Origin: Amia ocellicauda
Taxonomy: Eukaryota
Reading direction: 5' to 3'
Assembly: GCF_036373705.1 (NCBI RefSeq)
Contig: NC_089855.1
Coordinates: forward strand, 18,021,962 to 18,085,961
Length of the DNA stretch: 64,000 bases
Below the pieces are notes generated by a model. That model worked only from the letters and a program-made list of their open reading frames with translations. It made no database searches and was not told the origin of the DNA. Below, in pieces: positions 4,974 through 55,979 of this stretch (position 1 is the first letter of the stretch; each line of letters starts with the position of its first letter). The translations under genes and the position numbers were made by a program.

Positions 4974-5711
4974 CAGTGAGGGAAAAAAGTATTTGATCCC
5001 CTGCAGATTTTGTACATTTGCCCACTGACAAAGAAATGATCAGTCTATAATTTTAATGGTAGGTGTATTTTAACAGTGAGAGACAGAATAACAACAAAAA
5101 AATCCAGAAAAACACATTTAAAAAAAGTTATAAATTGATTTGCATGTTAATGAGGGAAATAAGTATTAGATCCCCTATCAATCAGCAAGATTTCTGGCTC
5201 CCAGGTGTCTTTTATACAGGTAACGAGCTGAGATTAGGACCTCTCTCTTAAAGGGACTCTCCTAATCTCAGCTCGTTACCTGTATAAAAGACACCTGTCC
5301 ACAGAAGCAATCAATCAATCAGATTCCAAACTCTCCACCATGGCCAAGACCAAAGAGCTGTCCAAGGATGTCAGGGACAAGATTGTAGACCTACACAAGG
5401 CTGGAATGGGCTACAAGACCATCGCCAAGCAGCTTGGTGAGATGGACAGGGCCATGTACCGTCAAATCTTGGGTGAGAACCTCCTTCCCTCAGCCAGGGC
5501 ATTGAAAATGGGTCGTGGAAGGGGTCAAATACTTATTTCCCTCAAATCAATTTAAATCTTTTTTGAAATGCGTTTTTCTGGATTTGTTTGTTGTTATTCT
5601 GTCTCTCGCTGTTAAAATACACCTACCATTAAAATTATAGACTGATCATTTCTTTGTCAGTGGGCAAACGTACAAAATCAGCAGAGGATCAATTACTTTT
5701 TTCCCTCACTG
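4974..5711 (+). mobile_element. Tc1/mariner (Sleeping-Beauty-like) internally deleted non-autonomous copy, 738 bp, flanked by TA
   Basis: Terminal inverted repeats cagtgagggaaaaaagtatttgatcccctgc at 4974 and its reverse complement ending at 5711, each flanked by TA. The internal ORF 5340-5555 encodes [34 protein letters not shown] (Tc1 transposase N-terminus) fused out of context to a C-terminal segment [16 protein letters not shown]. The same family occurs full-length at 50165-51674. Confidence 0.85.
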
Positions 5712-15944: not shown

Positions 15945-18534
15945 ATCCCTCCCCCACCCTCCCTCGGAAAAACGGCACTTCTCAGCTCAGCGCATTTGAT
16001 TCAAAGCTGCTCCTGACAGCTGGAGAGATGACATGTGTGGTTTTCTTTCCATGACGGTTGTGCTGATAGGAACTGTTAGCACCTGGGTAAGTCTGTGTCT
16101 AACTTCTCCAGCCAATGGCAAGGCAAGCAGCTGAGAACACTCTGCGCTGTGCAGCTGTCTGCAGGCTGCCTCTGAGGATGAACATACCCTGGGCAAAAAG
16201 TAATTGGACACATCCGATTGGGCGTGATTAAGCCAAATACAGTTGTTGGCAAGACAACTTGAGTTTATTGCATATTCCTGAATCCATAAACATATATTTG
16301 TATTGAGAATATTGCCCCATGCACAGCCATTGTTCTCTTGTTATAGTTCTTAAAGATGGAAGTTGATGTGGCAGAAGAGACAGATATAATTTTATCTCAT
16401 CTCAGGCTTTTTAAATGTCTTGTTAAATACTGTTTTATCTCCTTAAATTATTCAAATCAGCCACTGGTCGATTTTCTTGTACATGATGTTATTATAGAGT
16501 CATTGCTCTCTCCTTTGTTTTCTGTGTTGTGCTGTTGTATCTATTTAAAGACATCCAGCTGACAACACTTAAATTAGCATTTTCTTGTGCTGGATTGTCA
16601 CAATGTGTCTCTCCTTGAAGCTGAAGAAATGAAAAAGTGGGAGGGAATGGCAAGAGAACAGAATGCACATACATTGCATTAGCAAAGCATGAAGGGTACA
16701 CTAATGTGATTCCCTTCCATATGATTTGTTGGAAAACAAAAATGTCTTCCAAGCACAGCATTGTTGACCTCCCTTAACATGACTTAATTTCACTGTATCA
16801 CAAACACTGTACACCCCCTCCTGTCTCTGAGTTGACTGACTATTTTCCTGCATCTAACAAGCACAAATGAACTGTGCTAAACTCCTAGCACTGCTGACCT
16901 ATTTTGTGGGTAAAGTCATCCATTTTGGCGAACTTCCACAACATTACTGTCGTATTAGGTAGGGTATTAGAATTTAGTTAATCATAAAAACATTTGTGTG
17001 ATTAAGCTTTTCATTTGAAGTCATTACCATATTTGCTAATATATTTCTGGCTGTGTGCTAAGAGAAGGATGAGTGAACATATATAAACAACATTTTGATT
17101 TTGATTTTTATACACAATGAAAAGCTTTTGCTAACACCCAAACAACTAAAGCATGGTTTAATTCATTCCAGCAGCGCTTTATAGCTGGCTTTAGTCATCT
17201 TCATAGATATATTACATAAAAAAAAAAAAAAAACACACATTTGAAAACATCACAGAGGTAGCTCAGGTAGCTGCACACAATAGCTTAAATGGTTACTGAA
17301 TCCTTTCCAGTTATATTTTCATCAAACAGTACAACAATTCAAAATCTGCTGCTTGCTTCTGTGCTTTGCCTTTGCTGGGCTGTGTTTTTCCCCCCTGCTC
17401 TGTCTCTTTCTTCATAATCTGGGCCCTGCATGCTGAGTTTATTAGCAATACCTTTAATAGTTTATAGGGCTGCTTTTGTTTTTCCTTTTTGCAGATTACT
17501 TGAGTGTGAGGTTATACAATAACTCGTTGCACGATTGTTTAGAAAATTAATCGTTAAACAAGTCTTTAAAGTGATTTAGTTGTATTTAACATCTTTCGGC
17601 TCTGCGGCTATGCAGTCTCATTGAAGCCCAGTTAAGTATTAAGGTTAAGTAATGCTAAGGTTTCTTTGTCTGTTTAAATCTGGAACTAAACATTTTGAAC
17701 CATCTCTTCAGATCCCAGTGGAAGACACCTTTTCAGACAATCGTGAGGTGACATTTTACCTGGCATTTCAAATAGCAGCAATTGCACAATCATAAAAACA
17801 ATATATAGAAAATCATGTTGTAGTTTTCCTTTCAGTAATAAAGGCCATCAACTACAGAGTGCGTTTTCCTCCCTCAAAGAGACCAGGAACAGTATGTGTG
17901 AGTCTTAATATAATTGTCCCCATAGTTCTCTCTGGTGAATCAACTGCCTGCTTCATCACAGAATTTGTCATTTTCTGTTTGCAGAGAGCACTGGGATGCT
18001 CATTAGCAAGTTAGCAGGGCATCACGGTGCAAAGCTGTAGAAAGGTCATCTCCCTGAAGTATTCCAGCAGTGACTTCAAAGGCTCAGATGTGTCTGGAAT
18101 TCAACTGCCTTAATTGTCCTGATGGCGTTTTCAACACATCCGGAGCTCCGACAATCACTGCAGAGATTAATCATTTCATTTGGGCTCAAGAGATGTTGCT
18201 CAACTATACGTTGAAAGAACTTGGAGAAACGCAAGACAGATTGTATTGATTTTTTTAGGTGTATCATGAGAATTGCTCCAATACTGAATATTTCGTGTTA
18301 AAGAAGAAAGCTCTTACATTCAAATTTTAATTTCCATTTTCTTTTTCTGTTCTGTTTCCACAAAACTAAAATAACCTAGTACATTTAACTCCGGCTACAT
18401 ACTGGTATTATAGTTTATGCTTCTCAAGGGTGATGGACTAGTAAATATGAGTTATACGTAAACCATAATGATGCATAACAAGCATTTCAGGAAACTTGTT
18501 ATTTCCTGTAATTTCAGGAAATAACATGGTTGCA

Positions 18535-30971: not shown

Positions 30972-33846
30972 TGGTTGTACTATGGCAACATTAAAGGGGA
31001 AAGGGGTTTATAATTACTATAGGTAAACCCTGAATTTGTGAAGTTTAATGAAATCTATAATGAAACATTATTGGATTGTATCTGATTGGCCCATGACAGT
31101 GAACTGATTTAAACATGCTTTGAACAGGACCATGCTTTGATCAGGTATCCCATGTTTAACATTGATATGCTTTATGATTGCAGAGAAGTGATATTAACGT
31201 GAAACAGAGCGGACCAAATATTTCTTAATATTAAAACCTACCACTGCATTTGGGAGCAAGATCACTCACAATTATTATTTTACTGGATCTTAAATTTAAA
31301 GATCAAAAATACAAAGAAGTCTGGAGATTGCTTGCTCTGTGTGTTCTAGTCACATGACATCAGTCTCTGCTCTCAGCATATTTGACCACCCACCCCTATC
31401 TTTCATATTATTAAGGTCATTCAACATGCCCACATAACTACTGAGCCAATCAATTTAGACTCCCTTAAAAATAAACAATACAAAATCATTCTACAGCAAA
31501 TCGATACTTTTTTCCCCATTAGTCGCCCAAAAGGAACTTGTTGCTTATTCTGTTCTGGATTTGCAGAATAGACCACTGTTTCACAGCATGATGGTAAGGA
31601 AACTAATGCTCAGGGGCACTTTTCAGATTCAAAACTCTTGCCTTATGCAGTCGTGGTTTAAAGAGTGGTCTAAGTAGAATGGTCCAAACAGATTACTGCA
31701 ATCCTTTCTACTGAAGAAGAAACAGTTCTGCAGAGCTCCTCTCAAAAGCCGTCCAATCTCATCAAGAGGTCACTGTCATTATCAGCTCTGCTCCTTCTGG
31801 GAGTTCAAAATTTAATAGGTTACTAACCCAGTGCTGCAGGGTGAACACTGTTGCTCTGAGATGTCAGCTTTCATGAAGCTGTTAGAAAAGAAATCACACT
31901 GCTAGAAGGAGTGAGAGCAGGAATTGTTTTCTGAGTGCAATGTTTTAACCAGAGTTCAATGTGTTATTTCCTTCAAAATACCTCTTACTTTAAAGAGTAG
32001 GTAATTGTTGGTAACTTAGACTTAAGTTGAATCCCATTAAACAACAACCCATATCTAGATGCTAACAATGTATTCACTTAACCAGTTTGACAATACATGG
32101 AAATTACAAGTATCTATTAATACCGCACTAATAATACACAGCTAATATGCTGAGTGTCATTGTCCATGTTAGCAGATATTATGCAAATATTATTATCAAT
32201 GTAGTAAAGGCAACAGTGTAGCACAGTGGGGACAAAACAAAGGCTCACATACACAGTACACAGCCTCTGACTCCAAGCAGCACACAAAGGAAGGAGCAAC
32301 CAATAATAAGCAATGACTTTACGTGTCTTTGCTTCTTCCCCCATTGGTTGCAAACAAAAGCTGTAACCACATCATTAAAATTGAATGCTGCTTATTCATA
32401 TTTTTATTATACTGTACATATTTTGTTTTCTGTTTAGTGGTTGTGGAAAGTTACCTAGCAAATCATAAATTTTTATACCAAATATATATTTTTATGTTTA
32501 CATTGTGATCATTTAATAGTTCATTTCAGAGAAGATCTTGCTAGGAGTGAATTCTTTGACTCGAGTTTTTTTTTTATCAAAATGGCATTACATTTGATCA
32601 ACAAACCTTATCCTCCTTTGGGCAATATGTAATCCTGCCATCTACCCAAAGACTGTCTTCTTCAATTATGCACAGTGATGCATTTGGCTTAGAGACATTA
32701 CCAAATTTGTGTAAATAAATACAGAAAGACATTCACGTATGTGTCTAGGGTTAGCAATTATGATAATGTCAATCATTTCAAGCCATTTAGGAACCATATG
32801 AAATTTGACTTCAAATGAGCAATAATGCAAATGAACATAAATGTGACCAAGCCAGTGAGCTCAGTAGGTTAGTGTTCATATCCTAAAGTCATTAGCACTC
32901 TGCGTAATCCCTGTGGAGATGTGCCATTCCAATTAACTCATTAAAAACAGCAATTACACACTGAAAAGGCAGGAAATATAAACTAAAACTTGTATAAGAC
33001 ATACCATAGGCTTGCAATATATTTCTAAATTGATATATACACTTTAAGACATCAATTTTAAATGTTTTTCCTGATTTTTTCACTTCTGGCAACTTGGGCA
33101 CTGACAGGTAGTCTGTCAATTGGGCTTAGATCTCAGAGAGATGTCACATCTCAATTTAACAAATCTCCCAATCAGCTCAGAAGGCAGGATCTCAATTATT
33201 GTATTCATCATTGCAATCCACACTGATCTCTCAGTCTAAAGTAGCACCTTATATTTATGTTTCCTTGGTGGCTTTAATGAATATTTTTACAGGAAAAACA
33301 GGAAAGGGCATTGAATGAGGTTTGAACCTGTCCTTTAACTAGTCTCCATGTGAGATTTCTCAGCATGGTGTATTTCCAAAATAACCAATGAAAATCTATA
33401 TTAATAGCCATATATAAACAGTTTCAACTTGAAAACTGCTGAAGGCTTTAGAGTCTCATTTATTGAACTATTCTTTAGGATTTAATTTCATTGAGTGTTA
33501 AACAGTGGAAAATATATCCAAAGAGCCAGACTTGAAAAGGTTAGTAATTAGTAATACAGGAAAGCAATATTGTTCTGGTCTTTTCAAGGCACAGAATTGG
33601 TTTGTTAAGGGCAGATAAAGGGCCCTTTATCCTTAATTACATGTTTTAAATGATGTAAAAATACAATATATTGACCCTGAGCTGTTTTCACACAGTACTT
33701 TGTATTTTAGAGAAAGTGCTTTCTGAAAGTGCTTCTGACTATCATATGGGGTTTTATATTAAAATACACCTGAAATGTTATCATTTAACCTTAAAGAGGA
33801 ATAAATAGAGTTACAAATATAATTATAAATTATATATATATATATA

Positions 33847-35070
33847 CACTCACCTAAAGGATTATTAGGAACACCTGTTCAATTTCTCATTAATGCAATT
33901 ATCTAACCAACCAATCACATGGCAGTTGCTTCAATGCATTTAGGGGTGTGGTCCTGGTCAAGACAATCTCCTGAACTCCAAACTGAATGTCTGAATGGGA
34001 AAGAAAGGTGATTTAAGCAATTTTGAGCGTGGCATGGTTGTTGGTGCCAGACGGGCCGGTCTGAGTATTTCACAATCTGCTCAGTTACTGGGATTTTCAC
34101 GCACAACCATTTCTAGGGTTTACAAAGAATGGTGTGAAAAGGGAAAAACATCCAGTATGCGGCAGTCCTGTGGGCGAAAATGCCTTGTTGATGCTAGAGG
34201 TCAGAGGAGAATGGGCCGACTGATTCAAGCTGATAGAAGAGCAACTTTGACTGAAATAACCACTCGTTACAACCGAGGTATGCAGCAAAGCATTTGTGAA
34301 GCCACAACACGTACAACCTTGAGGCGGATGGGCTACAACAGCAGAAGACCCCACCGGGTACCACTCATCTCCACTACAAATAGGAAAAAGAGGCTACAAT
34401 TTGCACAAGCTCACCAAAATTGGACAGTTGAAGACTGGAAAAATGTTGCCTGGTCTGATGAGTCTCGATTTCTGTTGAGACATTCAGATGGTAGAGTCAG
34501 AATTTGGCGTAAACAGAATGAGAACATGGATCCATCATGCCTTGTTACCACTGTGCAGGCTGGTGGTGGTGGTGTAATGGTGTGGGGGATGTTTTCTTGG
34601 CACACTTTAGGCCCCTTAGTGCCAATTGGGCATCGTTTAAATGCCACGGCCTACCTGAGCATTGTTTCTGACCATGTCCATCCCTTTATGACCACCATGT
34701 ACCCATCCTCTGATGGCTACTTCCAGCAGGATAATGCACCATGTCACAAAGGTCGAATCATTTCAAATTGGTTTCCTGAACATGACAATGAGTTCACTGT
34801 ACTAAACTGGCCCCCACAGTCACCAGATCTCAACCCAATAGAGCATCTTTGGGATGTGGTGGAACGGGAGCTTCGTGCCCTGGATGTGCATCCCACAAAT
34901 CTCCATCAACTGCAAGATGCTATCCTATCAATATGGGCCAACATTTCTAAAGAATGCTTTCAGCACCTTGTTGAATCAACGCCACGTAGAATTAAGGCAG
35001 TTCTGAAGGCGAAAGGGGGTCAAACACAGTATTAGTATGGTGTTCCTAATAATCCTTTAGGTGAGTGTGT
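33847..35070 (+). mobile_element. Tc1-like DNA transposon (second family), full-length copy A with intact transposase ORF, inserted in a (TA)n tract
   Basis: 30-bp terminal inverted repeats: acactcacctaaaggattattaggaacacc at the 5' end and its reverse complement at 35041-35070. A (TA)n tract lies immediately upstream (33826-33846). The internal ORF is uninterrupted and 346 aa long. Confidence 0.85.
33995..35035 (+). CDS. Tc1-family DDE transposase, apparently intact (346 aa)
   Basis: Open from ATG to stop. It has an N-terminal paired-like/HTH region (GDLSNFERGMVVGARRAGLSISQSAQLLGFSRTTISRVYKEW) and a catalytic triad in Tc1-type spacing (WSDESRF ... FQQDNAPCH ... LNPIEHLWDV). It is 98-99% identical to copies B and C, which carry a truncation or a nonsense mutation. 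Confidence 0.8.
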   Translation: MGKKGDLSNFERGMVVGARRAGLSISQSAQLLGFSRTTISRVYKEWCEKGKTSSMRQSCGRKCLVDARGQRRMGRLIQADRRATLTEITTRYNRGMQQSICEATTRTTLRRMGYNSRRPHRVPLISTTNRKKRLQFAQAHQNWTVEDWKNVAWSDESRFLLRHSDGRVRIWRKQNENMDPSCLVTTVQAGGGGVMVWGMFSWHTLGPLVPIGHRLNATAYLSIVSDHVHPFMTTMYPSSDGYFQQDNAPCHKGRIISNWFPEHDNEFTVLNWPPQSPDLNPIEHLWDVVERELRALDVHPTNLHQLQDAILSIWANISKECFQHLVESTPRRIKAVLKAKGGQTQY

Positions 35071-35838
35071 ATATATTGAGTGTGCCAAGAAAACATCCCC
35101 CACACCATTACACCACCACCACCACCAGCCTGCACAGTGGTAGCAAGGCATGATGGATCCATGTTCTCATTCTGTTTACGCCAAATTCTGACTCTACCAT
35201 CTGAATGTCTCAACAGAAATCGAGACTCATCAGACCAGGCAACATTTTTCCAGTCTTCAACTGTACAATTTTGGTGAGCTTGTGCAAATTGTAGCCTCTT
35301 TTTCCTATTTGTAGTGGAGATGAGTGGTACCCGGTGGGGTCTTCTGCTGTTGTAGCCCATCCGCCTCAAGGTTGTATGTGTTGTGGCTTCACAAATGCTT
35401 TGCTGCATACCTCGGTTGTAACGAGTGGTTATTTCAGTCAATGTTGCTCTTCTATCAGCTTGAATCAGTCGGCCCATTCTCCTCTGACCTCTAGCATCAA
35501 CAAGGCATTTTCGCCCACAGGACTGCCGCATACTGGATGTTTTTCCCTTTTCACACCATTCTTTGTAAACCCTAGAAATGGTTGTGCGTGAAAATCCCAG
35601 TAACTGAGCAGATTGTGAAATACTCAGACCAGCCCGTCTGGCACCAACAACCATGCCACGCTCAAAATTGCTTAAATCACCTTTCTTTCCCATTCAGACA
35701 TTCAGTTTGGAGTTCAGGAGATTGTCTTGACCAGGACCACACCCCTAAATGCATTGAAGCAACTGCCATGTGATTGGTTGGTTAGATAATTGCATTAATG
35801 AGAAATTGAACAGGTGTTCCTAATAATCCTTTAGGTGA

Positions 35839-35842
<4 letters not shown>
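35071..35842 (-). mobile_element. Tc1-like (second family) copy B: inverted 5' portion (TIR plus N-terminal 215 codons), abutting copy A tail-to-tail
   Basis: It is the reverse complement of element positions 1 to about 770, and includes ORF 35046-35693 (minus strand). Its 5' TIR ends ggtgagtgt at 35842 and is followed by (TA)n at 35843-35904. It is joined to the copy A 3' TIR by only 8 bp (gtatatat). Confidence 0.8.

Positions 35843-35904
<62 letters not shown>
35843..35904. repeat. (TA)n microsatellite flanking copy B
   Basis: Read directly. Confidence 0.95.
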
Positions 35905-35910
<6 letters not shown>

Positions 35911-38900
35911 TTATTTATTAAAATATTCCTGTTTTCCCTTGTTTTTTAGCAGACAATTTAGTCTTCATTTCAATCATGCTCTACAAATATACACTGTAAT
36001 TCTTGAAATTCAAGAAAATGTGATTCAAATGTTATATGAAGATGGGAGGAAGAAGGTGTCTCTCTGCAACAGTTTGCCAGGTGAATTGTTTAATGGAAAT
36101 CTTCGTGCCTGCTCTTTATCTTTCATGAGCCAGTTGTACACATTTCTGATTCACAGAGGACGGGTTCTCCGTCTCAATGTTTGTAAATCAATGCACAGCC
36201 ATGAAATCCCAGCTGTGGCTCTACGTTATCTTCAGTAATGCATGTGACGGATTTGCAACTATATTGACATATTGCAATGTCCGGTTTGACTGGTGCAGTC
36301 AGTCCGCAGTCTCACATGTATACCTCATAGTCAGTTACCCTGAAGCACTGCTTCGGTGTAGCGTACCCTACAGTACATCTGTCAAGGCCCTGTACAATCC
36401 CATTAAACTGATGACGAAAGATCAAATCTGAAAAAGTGAATTATTGCTCTCTGGGCAGGATTGTAATTCTAGTATTGCCTGCAAACTTCCACTGCAAGGA
36501 AAATGAGAATGTGTGACAAGGATTAATTAAACACTTATCATTAGACGATCTTTATAATATCCTTCAGTACCCATCAGTGTTCTCAGTGTTAGAAATGTGA
36601 GGTCACAGTAAAAAAAAGACCTTTCTGTTCTTATAATTCTAGCTTCATAATACCATAGGCTAACCAATTATCTATTTCTCCTGACTTGCATATCAATAGA
36701 AGGTAATGACAGACAGCCCTGGGCAAGGTCAAAACTTCCCTAATTAAACCTTGAAGCACTCCAATCATCGCATTACACATAACAAAGTAGGCCAAAAGCA
36801 TACATTCTTTCATTTACAAAATTATACTCAATTAGCATGAACAGACACTCAATAGACTTATAAGATACATTTCTCTACCATATCCATATAATTTGTGTTT
36901 TTTTTTTTTCCCTTTTCTATGTATGTGACATATGTTGCAGTGCAACTTGCAGTTCATTATTAATCTCATTTTCCTGGTTACTTGCTTCATCTCTCAAAAG
37001 TGATGCCTAACCTTGTGAGAAACACAAGCTCAATGCAATTAAAGCATAATAAAGCACAGACAAAATTATTGTAAATTCAGCCAATCATGTTCCGGTGATG
37101 GTATGAACACTGCAACAAGTGCAAGAAATAATTGAGAATACATTAAAATGTGCCAGGACAGTTAAGACTTATGTTGTCCATACAACAGTTAACAGAAAAG
37201 TGACATCCCCAAATGCCATTCATAACTGGATGTACTGATGGACAGCAGCCCAGATATGCATTGACATTGCAATTAGTAATACATATCCTAAGCTGTTAAA
37301 TTCCACTAATGTTAAAATGGATCCCTTCACATCTGACTGGTTCCTCCATCCTATGTTACAGTACATCAGACTGTGATTGCATCAAATGCAGCATCGCTGT
37401 GACTGTACCACATCGTCTGTTATAGCATATTTGTATGAAACAATTTTGAAAAGTAAGCAATTAAAATAATACTAAATTGCAATAGAGAAAATGTCAACCT
37501 AAAGAAAGCTGATAAAACAGGGTTAAACTAAACACTGGGAACTCTGTACACCCAAAGGAAATACCGTTATTCACTAGGTATGGTTATTGGAGAGGTGGCA
37601 ACAACAACAACACATACTGGTTGGCCTATCTATCTTTTCCTTTATTCATTTCAGTTCTTACAGGAATTTATGTACGTATTTAAAAGTGCGTTTCATCATG
37701 GTGAATGCATTGAACACTTGATGGCAAAGCAACATAATTACTGAACAATTAAAGAAATAAAGGCCAAATAATGTTTCACATAAAAGGAAAATATACAAAA
37801 TTGGTTTGGCACTGTGAGCATTAATTCAGAATATTTACAACATGCACTGATACACAGGAATCCAGGGGCAATTCTGTGTTTGGTTCGCTCTCTGCCTCTT
37901 TCTTATTTCCATATTGGCATGGCCAGGAGGCAGAGTTTAATAACCATCTTTACATTTACTGCAATGTCAGATGACCTTTAGTTTGGACCATAAAGGTTGT
38001 GACTACAGAGTTCTTTAAATGCAATAAAGGTACACAGCCTCTGGGACTATACCAAAAACAATATGCAATGGGGAGGCAACGAGGGGAATAACAGGAGCAC
38101 AAATGATGCACAGGACTTGCCCATATCGCTGGAATCATTATACTGCAGGAAAAGCCTTTAAAGGAACATGACGACATGGTTAAGATCAGTTAGGCATTCA
38201 TTAAAACAATTACAAGGTATTTTTACAGCATTTTGAAACCCTTTCAGAAAACTGAAATGACCTGGGGAAAGCATCTGACCCACATTCAGAAAAAAATCTT
38301 CTCCCCTGGCTGCTGGGGGAATGGCTGCTTCATTACCTTCAGGATTAGACAGTATCTGGGCTTTATTCTGTCTATTTGTCTAGCTTTCCCCCCTGTCTGT
38401 GTAGAGCTGTGTAAGCCTTTTTCTCCATCAGAGAATATGCTTGTTTGGAGCAAGTCTGTTAATATGGTGCTTTGTAGTACTCCACTAGAAGGACATAGTA
38501 ATGCACCTTGTATCGTATCTTTAAGTCTTGTTTTTTGTCGTCCATCAAACCTAGACTAGGACAATAGACCCACCAACACCAACAACTGCCTACACATGGA
38601 TTTTGTATTTCCTGCAAATGCAGACTCATTCACAGCCAGGGTCAGGGACTAATTCTGTCTTCTTTTAGTGCAAAACGATAACAACCTGCGTAATATATTC
38701 AGTTACCACTGTGACACAAGCTGCTGCCATCGAAGGCAAAATGAATGCTAACTCTCTCACCCCAAGGATTCTCTTGACAGTTGACGAGTTTCCATTATTT
38801 ACTACTGGTGTATTTCTGGAATCAGACCCACACAAAGCTTTATGTAAGGCAGTCCTACAAACAAAAGGTCATTCTACTATTTAAATTGTATGGAAAAATG

Positions 38901-50164: not shown

Positions 50165-51674
50165 CAGTGAGGGGAAAAAAGTATTTGATCCCCTGCTGAT
50201 TTTGTACGTTTGCCCACTGACAAAGAAATGATCAGTCTATAATTTTAATGGTAGGTGTATTTTAACAGTGAGAAAATTGATTTGCATGTTAATGAGGGAA
50301 ATAAGTATTTGACCCCTTCGACTTAGTACTTGGTGCCAAAACCCTTGTTGGCAATCACAGAGGTCAGACGTTTCTTGTAGTTGGCCACCAGGTTTGTACA
50401 CATCTCAGGAGGGATTTTGTCCCACTCCTCTTTGCAGATCCTCTCCAAGTCATTAAAGTTTCGAGGCTGACGTTTGGCAACTCGAACCTTCAGCTCCCTC
50501 CACAGATTTTCTATGGGATTAAGGTCTGGAGACTGGCTAGGCCACTCCAGGACCTTAATGTGCTTCTTCTTGAGCCACTCCTTTGTTGCCTTGGCTGTGT
50601 GTTTTGGGTCATTGTCATGCTGGAATACCCATCCACGACCCATTTTCAATGCCCTGACTGAGGGAAGGAGGTTCTCACCCAAGATTTGACGGTACATGGC
50701 CCTGTCCATCGTCCCTTTGATGCGGTGCAGTTGTCCTGTCCCCTTAGCAGAAAAACACCCCCAAAGCATAATGTTTCCACCTCCATGTTTGAAGGTAGGG
50801 ATGGTGTTCTTGGGGTCATTCCTCCTCCTCCAAACACGGCGAGGTCTCATCTGACCACAACACTTTCACCCAGTTCTCCTCTGAATCATTCAGATGTTCA
50901 TTGGCAAACTTCAGACGGGCCTGTACATGTGCTTTCTTGAGCAGGGGGACCTTGCGGGTGCTGCAGGATTTTAGTCCTTCATGGCATAGTGTGTTACCAA
51001 TTGTTTTCTTGGTGACTATGGTCCCAGCTGCCTTGAGATCATTAACAAGATCCTCCCGTGTAGTTCTGGGCTGATTCCTCACCGTTGTCATGATCATTGA
51101 AACTCCACGATGTGAGATCTTGCATGGAGCCCCAGACCGAGGGAGACTGACAGTTATTTTGTGTTTCTTCCATTTGCGAATAATCGCAGCAACTGTTGTC
51201 ACCTTCTCACCAAGCTGCTTGGCGATGGTCTTGTAGCCCATTCCAGCCTTGTGTAGGTCTACAATCTTGTCCCTGACATCCTTGGACAGCTCTTTGGTCT
51301 TGGCCATGGTGGAGAATTTGGAATCTGAGTGATTGATTGCTTCTGTGGACAGGTGTCTTTTATACAGGTAACGAGCTGAGATTAGGAGCACTCCCTTTAA
51401 GAGAGTGCTCCTAATCTCAGCTCGTTACCTGTATAAAAGACACCTGGGAGCCAGAAATTTTGCTGATTGATAGGGGATCATATACTTATTTCCCTCATTA
51501 TCATGCAAATCAATGTATAACTTTTTTGAAATGTGTTTTTCTGGATTTTTTTGTTGTTCTTCTGTCTCTCACTGTTAAAATACACCTACCATTAAAATTA
51601 TAGACTGATTATTTATTTGTCAGTGGGCAAACATACAAAATCAGCAGGGGATCAAATACTTGTTTCCCTCACTG
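50165..51674 (-). mobile_element. Tc1/mariner (Sleeping-Beauty-like) full-length copy (1510 bp) with frameshifted transposase, in rnf17 intron 5, antisense to the gene
   Basis: The TIRs cagtgaggggaaaaaagtatttgatcccctg sit at both ends (inverted), each flanked by TA. The minus-strand ORFs 50816-51391 and 50323-50850 together encode a complete SB-like transposase ([26 protein letters not shown]...DDE...[14 protein letters not shown]...KGFGTKY), split by one frameshift near 50816-50850. Confidence 0.9.
50323..51391 (-). pseudogene. Sleeping-Beauty-like Tc1 transposase pseudogene (single frameshift)
   Basis: Two overlapping ORFs cover the N-terminal paired-like DNA-binding domain and the DD34E catalytic domain. 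The overlap of the two frames at 50816-50850 indicates an indel. Confidence 0.85.
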
Positions 51675-54328: not shown

Positions 54329-54374
<46 letters not shown>

Positions 54375-54427
54375 ATGTATATATATATGTATGTATATGT
54401 ATATATATATATATATATGTATGTATA

Positions 54428-54463
<36 letters not shown>

Positions 54464-54587
54464 TATGTATATATATATATATATGTATGTATATGTATAT
54501 ATATATATATATGTATGTATATGTATATATATATATATATGTATGTATGTATGTATATGTATATATATGTATATATGTATGTATATG

Positions 54588-54658
<71 letters not shown>

Positions 54659-54683
54659 GTGTATGTATATATATATATGTATA
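54329..54683. repeat. about 355 bp compound (TA)n/(TG)n/(TATG)n microsatellite immediately 5' of Tc1-like copy C
   Basis: Read directly. It generates the spurious YIYIY / CVCVC ORFs at 54246-54743. Confidence 0.95.
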
Positions 54684-55904
54684 TACTCACCTAAAGGATT
54701 ATTAGGAACACCTGTTCAATTTCTCATTAATGCAATTATCTAACCAACCAATCACATGGCAGTTGCTTCAATGCATTTAGGGGTGTGGTCCTGGTCAAGA
54801 CAATCTCCTGAACTCCAAACTGAATGTCTGAATGGGAAAGAAAGGTGATTTAAGCAATTTTGAGCGTGGCATGGTTGTTGGTGCCACACGGGCCGGTCTG
54901 AGTATTTCACAATCTGCTCAGTTACTGGGATTTTCACGCACAACCATTTCTAGGGTTTACAAAGAATGGTGTGAAAAGGGAAAAACATCCAGTATTCGGC
55001 AGTCCTGTGGGCGAAAATGCCTTGTTGATGCTAGAGGTCAGAGGAGAATGGGCCGACTGATTCAAGCTGATAGAAGAGCAACTTTGACTGAAATAACCAC
55101 TCGTTACAACCGAGGTATGCAGCAAAGCATTTGTGAAGCCACAACACATACAACCTTGAGGCGGATGGGCTACAACAGCAGAAGACCCCACCGGGTACCA
55201 CTCATCTCCACTACAAATAGGAAAAAGAGGCTACAATTTGCACAAGCTCACCAAAATTGGACAGTTGAAGACTGGAAAAATGTTGCCTGGTCTGATGAGT
55301 CTCGATTTCTGTTGAGACATTCAGATGGTAGAGTCAGAATTTGACGTAAACAGAATGAGAACATGGATCCATCATGCCTTGTTACCACTGTGCAGGCTGG
55401 TGGTGGTGGTGTAATGGTGTGGGGGATGTTTTCTTGGCACACTTTAGGCCCCTTAGTGCCAATTGGGCATCGTTTAAATGCCACGGCCTACCTGAGCATT
55501 GTTTCTGACCATGTCCATCCCTTTATGACCACCATGTACCCATCCTCTGATGGCTACTTCCAGCAGGATAATGCACCATGTCACAAAGGTCGAATCATTT
55601 CAAATTGGTTTCTTGAACATGACAATGAGTTCACTGTACTAAACTGGCCCCCACAGTCACCAGATCTCAACCCAATAGAGCATCTTTGGGATGTGGTGGA
55701 ATGGGAGCTTCGTGCCCTGGATGTGCATCCCACAAATCTCCATCAACTGCAAGATGCTATCCTATCAATATGGGCCAACATTTCTAAAGAATGCTTTCAG
55801 CACCTTGTTGAATCAATGCCACGTAGAATTAAGGCAGTTCTGAAGGCGAAAGGGGGTCAAACACAGTATTAGTATGGTGTTCCTAATAATCCTTTAGGTG
55901 AGTG

Positions 55905-55905
<1 letters not shown>
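54684..55905 (+). mobile_element. Tc1-like (second family) copy C in rnf17 intron 11, sense orientation, flanked on both sides by (TA)n; transposase inactivated by one nonsense mutation
   Basis: TIR (t)actcacctaaaggattattaggaacacc at the 5' end and ggtgttcctaataatcctttaggtgagtgt at the 3' end. ORFs 54832-55344 and 55363-55872 are separated by a TGA at 55345 (RI*, versus RIW in copy A). A few missense differences otherwise. Confidence 0.85.
54832..55872 (+). pseudogene. Tc1-family transposase with a premature stop (TGG to TGA at 55345)
   Basis: Compared with the intact ORF at 33995-35035 it has the same length and frame, one nonsense change and a few missense changes. Confidence 0.8.

Positions 55906-55979
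<74 letters not shown>

Follow-up and report, generated by a model that had tools for sequence, protein, structure and literature searches.

A 64,000-nucleotide stretch of the Amia ocellicauda genome (NCBI RefSeq assembly GCF_036373705.1, contig NC_089855.1, positions 18,021,962 to 18,085,961 of the forward strand), referred to below as the window, was analyzed for copies of the Tc1/mariner transposon Incomer and for the TA microsatellites in which these copies lie. Five matches to the 29-bp terminus of the element, CACTCACCTAAAGGATTATTAGGAACACC, were found in the window (33847+, 35039−, 35813−, 54684+ and 55876−), when the number expected by chance was 0. Based on the terminal inverted repeat (TIR) matches and on alignment, a full-length copy A of 1221 bp with perfect 29-bp TIRs was delimited at 33847–35067 on the plus strand. 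It diverged from the family consensus by 0.66% and carried an intact open reading frame (ORF) for a 346-aa transposase (33995–35035, plus strand), as judged from the ORF list, Pfam and an alignment with the Sleeping Beauty (SB) transposase SB100X (PDB 5cr4). The Pfam domains HTH_23 and HTH_Tnp_Tc3_2, which form a paired helix-turn-helix, and DDE_3 were recognized in this protein, and its catalytic residues were D155, D246 and E283. With an uninterrupted ORF and perfect TIRs, copy A may be autonomous and still active.

Copy B (35079–35841, minus strand; blastn and alignment) was an inverted 5' fragment covering element positions 1–760. Its broken end was separated from the 3' end of copy A by an 11-bp filler, TGTATATATTG (35068–35078), and its 5' TIR pointed toward the array on the right. 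Together, A and B made up a 1995-bp head-to-head composite (33847–35841) with a 5' TIR at both outer ends, and given these ends the composite could in principle be moved as one unit. Either a nested insertion beside a truncated copy or an aberrant gap repair was considered as its origin. Copy C (54684–55904, plus strand) was full length, with a C to T change of the first base and one stop in the ORF. The three copies were ~99% identical to each other in alignment. The regions outside the arrays were unrelated between the A+B and C sites when 400-bp flanks were compared, and a segmental duplication was therefore ruled out. Since A and B sat in one array with a filler between them, the window was counted as two independent sites rather than three.

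The arrays were located by Tandem Repeats Finder (TRF) and by direct reading of the sequence. Immediately to the left of copy A lay (TA)8 (33831–33846), and the right end of the composite was followed by (TA)31 and a degenerate tail (35842–35918, with a pure run at 35842–35903). Copy C was preceded by a 355-bp compound (TA)n/(TG)n array (54329–54683), called by TRF at 54329–54685 (357 bp) as 12.8 copies of a 28-bp higher-order period with ~85% matches, or ~15% divergence between units; (TA)35 and then T15 stood to its right (55905–55975). The two sides of copy C seemed to differ in array type, the left one being a TA/TG repeat of 28-bp period and the right one almost pure TA. A sequence-only reading of the window, made earlier, had claimed that family copies lie in long TA arrays, and this was borne out, as the outer ends of A+B and C all abutted (TA)n; the array coordinates given there agreed with TRF to within a few bases. 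Its statement that all three copies lie in arrays held for every outer end. It did not hold for the number of sites, which was two, nor for the two ends at the A–B junction, the inner one of A and the broken one of B, which were outside any array.

Four of the five (TA)n arrays of at least 8 units in the 64 kb touched Incomer. The sole array of this size that had no contact with it was (TA)28 at 1713–1768, which demonstrated that unoccupied arrays exist. Two copies of an SB-like DD34E Tc1 family served as controls, and it was confirmed that both had inserted at a single TA: an element at 50165–51674 (minus strand), bordered by catttgTA and TAaattg, and a 738-bp internally deleted copy at 4974–5711 (plus strand). 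The transposase remnant of the former retained KH..DNDPKH, corresponding to SB H187, P247 and K248.

The element with the TA-array flanks was identified by its sequence as Incomer (IC), the DD36E family of Tc1/mariner. The identification followed from the DD36E spacing, the length of 1221 bp, the 346-aa ORF, the 29-bp TIRs and the TA duplication. The second Asp (D246) and the Glu (E283) were spaced by 36 residues, with the motifs anchored by alignment to D244 and E279 of SB100X. The published Incomer is ~1.2 kb long, encodes a single 346-aa ORF of the DD36E type, and has TIRs of 22–32 bp and a TA duplication (Sang et al. 2019, PMC6875036). Four of the five defining features were checked, namely spacing, length with ORF and domains, TIR length, and TA duplication, and all four were found; compared with the published element, the one in the window, with its 29-bp TIRs, showed no structural difference. 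The TA duplication was clean in a Leuciscus waleckii copy, L003 (TATATA before the element and TAcattt after it), and TA was present on both sides at L010 from Pimephales; within arrays the duplication was indistinguishable from the repeat. The closest proteins came from Cyprinus carpio (98%) and the mormyrid Paramormyrops kingsleyae (96–97%). Homologues at 57–98% identity had the DNAPCH motif in common, when SB was only ~38% identical.

Incomer has been reported as abundant in ray-finned fish, with signs of recent horizontal transfer (PMC6875036). The copies from the window, Leuciscus and Polypterus (L005:9853-10955) were 97.5–98.4% identical in DNA, and all were 0.7–1.5% away from one consensus. 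Such near-identity across the window, Leuciscus, Polypterus and a mormyrid indicates either a very recent horizontal transfer or assembly contamination. A record named as a partial transposase of Vibrio parahaemolyticus (P0106), on an 874-bp contig, was 77% identical to the fish transposase and almost certainly represents contamination of a bacterial assembly with host DNA. Exact-protein look-ups with the copy A transposase and its closest UniRef homologue gave no contigs. Bacterial and archaeal genome contigs gave no match when scanned first with the TIR and next with the protein, and neither did viral contigs scanned with the TIR. The scan of metagenome contigs returned one contig (L001), a host contaminant with a left flank only. 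A full-text literature search for the TIR sequence retrieved no paper.

The Incomer description contains no mention of microsatellites or of a flank preference (Sang et al. 2019, PMC6875036), and no report of a TA-array association for Incomer was found in the literature searched. Compared with the published family, the association is an added property and not the mark of a different kind of element.

Further, copies of the same family were examined in other genomes: four sites in Leuciscus waleckii (L002, L003, L004 and L006), one in Polypterus senegalus (L005) and the one on the metagenome contig (L001). These copies were chosen without regard to their flanks and all had at least 97% DNA identity to copy A. 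Arrays were found on the left and right of L002 (~142 bp of TA/TG and ~115 bp, respectively), L004 (~28 bp and ~176 bp) and L006, where (TA)9 stood on the left and (TG)18(TA)11 on the right. The Polypterus copy lay between (TA)4 and (TA)3, the latter followed by GATA repeats, and L003 between TATATA and a single TA. In L001 a 16-bp TA/CA tract was present on the left, beside the end of another Tc1-like element, and the contig ended on the right. Thus, five of the eight independent same-family sites (two in the window and six external) lay in long arrays, in each case with repeats to the left and to the right, and the remaining three lay in short (TA)2–6 runs. A sister subfamily, at ~82% DNA identity and with the TIR CACTCACCGGCCACTTTATTAGGTACACC or similar, was represented by six sites in three assemblies. 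Two of these were arrays (L009 and L011), two were (TA)2–3 (L007 and L008), and two were plain single TAs. Microsatellites on both sides were therefore the majority state in the main subfamily only (5/8, when the sister subfamily had 2/6). When the flanks were read against the palindromic core ATATATAT, most of the eight main-subfamily sites fitted it at 8/8 or 7/8 positions, although the sites were too few for a logo. The main exceptions were L003, which fitted at 6/8 (ATATACAT), L001 with its one flank, and the two Pimephales sister copies.

The Leuciscus copies were each interrupted by a different transposon of 1–5 kb (L002:10172-11184, L003:10679-11673, L004:10105-15406 and L006:10023-11245). 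One transposon shared by the four copies was considered and rejected, as the four inserts were unrelated. The genes annotated there as hypothetical proteins of 312–315 aa are transposase models spliced around the inserts, that is, annotation artefacts.

To estimate chance expectations, ~190 kb of background, made up of the window and the loci, was used, and TA was counted in the 30-bp flanks of TA dinucleotides. If insertion occurred uniformly at TA, at least 10 TA in both flanks were expected at 1.4% of the sites with the host arrays excluded and at 3.8% with the host arrays included, and at least 8 TA in one flank at 6–10%. The observed values were 4/7 of the two-sided sites for both flanks (2/2 in the window and 2/5 of the independently fetched sites) and 6/7 for one flank (4/5 of those fetched). 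For the five fetched sites, the binomial estimates were ~0.002–0.013 (both flanks, 2/5) and ~4e-4 (one flank, 4/5). A second null, in which insertion was confined to ATATATAT sites of the same DNA, gave an array on both sides in 51–60% of cases and at least 8 TA in one flank in 90–95%. As this null matched the observed 4/7 and 6/7, a preference for a 6–8-bp alternating-AT core suffices, and the recognition of long arrays or of non-B DNA is therefore unnecessary.

The residues which could account for such a preference were located by alignment with the SB100X catalytic domain (HMMER, PDB 5cr4). The alignment was unambiguous: TVQAGGGG of Incomer corresponded to TVKHGGGS of SB and DNAPCH to DNDPKH, placing Ala189 at the position of SB H187 and Cys250 at that of SB K248. 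Both residues were conserved among the Incomer homologues, and the SB-like element of the window, with His and Lys retained, lay at single TAs (two copies only). The target preferences of SB and of the related element ZB were taken from Miskey et al. 2022 (PMC8934666), Shen et al. 2021 (PMC7913693) and PMC9777934. SB100X prefers ATATATAT, yet only ~2% of its insertions are found there, when the share increases to 18% in H187P, 21% in H187V and 39% in K248R (PMC8934666). TA-rich simple repeats are enriched 24-fold by H187V and 43-fold by K248R, and the mutant pattern was read as a loss of target-DNA bending that is compensated by intrinsically bendable AT repeats (PMC8934666). A ATATATAT logo was reported for ZB, and genomic ZB and SB copies are found preferentially in AT repeats (PMC7913693; PMC9777934).

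Taken together, the pattern is probably best explained by a transposase that favours a short alternating-AT core, which is mostly found inside TA microsatellites. The copies in the window are taken to be young copies of Incomer, a cut-and-paste element. The Incomer transposase would integrate at TA and strongly favour a TA within a palindromic, highly bendable alternating-AT stretch of the ATATATAT type. Most such cores in these fish genomes would lie in (TA)n microsatellites, so the majority of insertions would enter a pre-existing array and split it in two, with one tract on each side of the element, and the rest would fall in short (TA)2–6 runs. It was proposed, by analogy with the SB mutants, that Ala189 and Cys250 may underlie the strong AT-repeat preference, as these residues at target-DNA-contact positions would make the enzyme dependent on target DNA that is deformable by nature. 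Once the element is in place, the half-arrays would go on mutating and may grow. A bolder version, which we hold only tentatively and consider less than probable, is that Incomer is the natural counterpart of SB H187V/K248R, lacking the His and Lys that assist target-DNA bending and being largely restricted to deformable AT repeats, and that arrays split by an insertion may also become unstable and grow.

We infer from the sequence patterns that the arrays predated the insertions. Arrays bordered both ends of the copy at all five array sites and neither end at the non-array sites, unoccupied arrays were frequent within the same loci, and several elements shared arrays. Copies of equal age, all 0.7–1.5% from the consensus, had flanks that nevertheless ranged from 0 (a lone TA) to 355 bp. 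The diverged 28-bp structure of the array to the left of copy C, beside an element only 1% diverged, pointed the same way. The TG/CA interruptions in the arrays preserved the dinucleotide phase. The idea that the arrays were carried as part of the mobile unit was rejected, as L003 and L010 had clean TA boundaries and array length and composition differed everywhere. Paralogous empty sites were sought with the 400-bp flanks of the array-element complexes against the window and the loci, and only self-matches and the ends of neighbouring transposons were retrieved. For an orthologous empty site, no convincing host exon was found near the window copies, and the Ly6/uPAR gene beside the L002 copy had just a short, fast-evolving exon for orthologue comparison. 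Excision footprints (TA, three terminal bases and TA) were not apparent in the arrays by reading, with no dedicated computation made; by reasoning, the Incomer ends (CAC/GTG) would not yield a canonical footprint anyway.

The opposite order of events, with insertion at an ordinary TA and the TA duplication and TG/CA-ending termini nucleating and expanding TA/TG arrays on both sides, is considered very unlikely. The termini, TA and CAC at one end and GTG and TA at the other, do form a proto TA/TG repeat, the (TG)18 of L006 began exactly at the TIR end, copy A had one extra TG, and occupied arrays were longer than unoccupied ones. In Medicago, occupied MuTAnT sites likewise have more TA units than empty ones (PMC4486113). 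Against such seeding stand the copies of equal age with no array (L003) or with 3–4 units (L005), and the both-or-neither pattern, which is not expected of independent expansions. Moreover, slippage usually requires more than one or two repeat units, and the duplication of a single unit makes a poor substrate for it. The interruptions in the left arrays were often TG, a dinucleotide that could not have come from the CA-type 5' end, and the array to the left of copy C, with its 28-bp structure and ~15% unit divergence, adjoins an element only 1% diverged. Many arrays held no element at all, and several unrelated elements occurred in common arrays. The seeding or expansion suggested in the sequence-only reading was thus not supported as the origin of the arrays, although some growth may have followed insertion.

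It is unlikely, though to a lesser degree, that the transposase or a host factor recognizes long (TA)n as such, through cruciform or other non-B structure or nucleosome-free DNA. The host arrays were ~2.5 times longer than predicted by length-proportional sampling of unoccupied arrays, three transposon ends were clustered in one L004 array, and the SB mutant work ties AT-repeat targeting to DNA bendability. However, same-family copies occurred at (TA)3 and (TA)6 (L003 and L005), sister copies occurred at a single TA, and the ATATATAT-site null alone reproduced the observed fractions; the extra length, known from five arrays only, is equally explicable by later growth. Hence the non-B DNA suggested in the sequence-only reading was not needed. 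A retention bias, in which insertion is random with respect to TA and microsatellite copies persist because they are neutral or harder to excise, is highly improbable. It would agree with the location of TA arrays outside exons and regulatory DNA, as noted in the SB work, and with the fact that the copies open to observation are all fixed or assembled ones. Yet most of the DNA in the window and the loci was repeat-rich and either intergenic or intronic, and almost any TA in such DNA should be neutral, the 15- to 40-fold enrichment among copies diverged by ~1% was too big for selection alone, and SB-like copies persisted nearby at ordinary TAs. Finally, a mere coincidence or ascertainment effect in genomes rich in TA arrays (roughly one per 5–20 kb in those examined) is hardly credible, as the pattern recurred in the fetched copies with the one-flank excess over the uniform-TA null given above.

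The targeting of TA tracts, the other suggestion of the sequence-only reading, was supported by the recurrence elsewhere, the both-or-neither flanks, the unoccupied arrays and the other elements in the same arrays. The finding there named as fatal, that most other copies lie in unique sequence, was not made for the main subfamily. Its suggestion that the SB-like family behaves differently agreed with the controls at single TAs, but these were two copies only, and the suggestion conflicts with the published AT-repeat preference of SB and ZB.

Several observations weigh against the core-preference explanation or limit it. The preference was not absolute, since both L010 Pimephales copies of the sister subfamily lay at a plain single TA. 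The sample was small (eight same-family and six sister-subfamily sites), and the external copies were located via gene models, an ascertainment that may be biased. No empty pre-insertion site was obtained, so the earlier presence of the arrays is deduced from their pattern. The occupied arrays averaged ~174 bp in total (five arrays), compared with 52 bp for the unoccupied ones and a size-biased expectation of 68 bp. A simple per-site model failed to predict this excess, which could reflect growth after insertion or a more-than-proportional preference for long arrays. In L006, the (TG)18 run, followed by (TA)11 (L006:12291-12348), started right at the end of the 3' TIR (GGTGAGTG followed directly by TGTG) with no TA between, and the 3' end of copy A had one extra TG (window 35068–35069); slippage in which the TIR terminus took part, or a change of TA to TG, may lie behind both. 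Other families occupied the same arrays, and the behaviour may thus be no stronger in Incomer than in other Tc1-like elements. The argument from Ala189 and Cys250 is an analogy only, and the SB mutant K248C keeps just 4% activity, with no ATATATAT frequency given for it in the main text of that study.

Other elements were also observed in the arrays of these loci. In L004, a nest of TA-duplicating elements within one TA array system (16372-17500) consisted of the Incomer 3' end, a ~176-bp TA array, a 901-bp Tc1-like non-autonomous element with ~180-bp TIRs (16548-17448), 28 bp of TA/TG, and lastly one end of a third transposon (CACAGGGGTTGGACAATG...). The Incomer copy in L001 likewise adjoined a relative of the 901-bp element. 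A 96-bp palindromic miniature inverted-repeat transposable element (MITE) was placed between two arrays in L002 (12210-12305). A MITE-like inverted repeat of 204 bp, built around an array of ~110 bp, was present in L006 (9633-9836), and a similar one in Pimephales (L011:9073-9140). In these cyprinid genomes, TA-associated MITEs seem to use TA arrays as general landing sites, or even to include them as components. In L007 (16693-17554), two perfectly complementary 40-nt arms, one ending in GTGAGTGTA and the other beginning with TACACTCAC, brought Incomer-like termini face to face over 782 bp that held an SB-like transposase remnant; the arms may be two element ends around another element.

The preference of Tc1-like elements for alternating-AT targets was already established and is probably extended here by a further family, and in qualitative terms the finding is unsurprising. 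Incomer, which was described in 2019 with no note on its flanks, shows a strong preference in fixed copies of several fish lineages, and a 6–8-bp core preference alone puts most insertions in the long arrays of fish genomes rich in TA microsatellites. The core-preference count bears on repeat annotation, on assembly gaps near Incomer, and on the reading of TA arrays beside transposons as contamination. The natural Ala and Cys at the AT-repeat-specificity positions of SB make a concrete structure-function prediction relevant to safer integrating vectors. If Incomer were indeed the natural counterpart of H187V/K248R, TA microsatellites would be its main genomic niche, vertebrates would provide a transposase that is active in its natural form and inherently biased against exons and regulatory DNA, and residue identity at two positions would be linked to target choice across Tc1/mariner families.

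Among known systems, Intruder (DD38E), a sibling Tc1 family, has copies in cat genome contigs that are flanked by TA-repeat regions (PMC7731502); it is a different family, and the authors took the TA-repeat flanks to indicate contamination rather than a preferred target. Micron of rice, TAFT of maize and MuTAnT of Medicago (PMC4486113) are likewise embedded in TA microsatellites with repeats in both flanks, and empty MuTAnT sites have ~9 TA units when occupied ones have ~15 per side (PMC4486113). In contrast to Incomer, they reside in plant hosts, belong to unrelated superfamilies (Mutator-like and others) and produce longer target duplications (9 bp for MuTAnT); their empty sites have also been demonstrated. 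In its target Incomer resembles SB and ZB, which use TA in the palindromic ATATATAT core and have genomic copies reported in AT repeats. These are DD34E elements, unlike Incomer, which is DD36E with short TIRs and has natural Ala and Cys at the H187 and K248 positions, and wild-type SB uses ATATATAT in only ~2% of insertions. The Incomer preference was derived from copies fixed in genomes rather than from de novo integration. The SB mutants, with 21–39% of insertions at ATATATAT and a 24- to 43-fold repeat enrichment, show an effect similar in size to the 4/7 to 5/8 recorded for Incomer.

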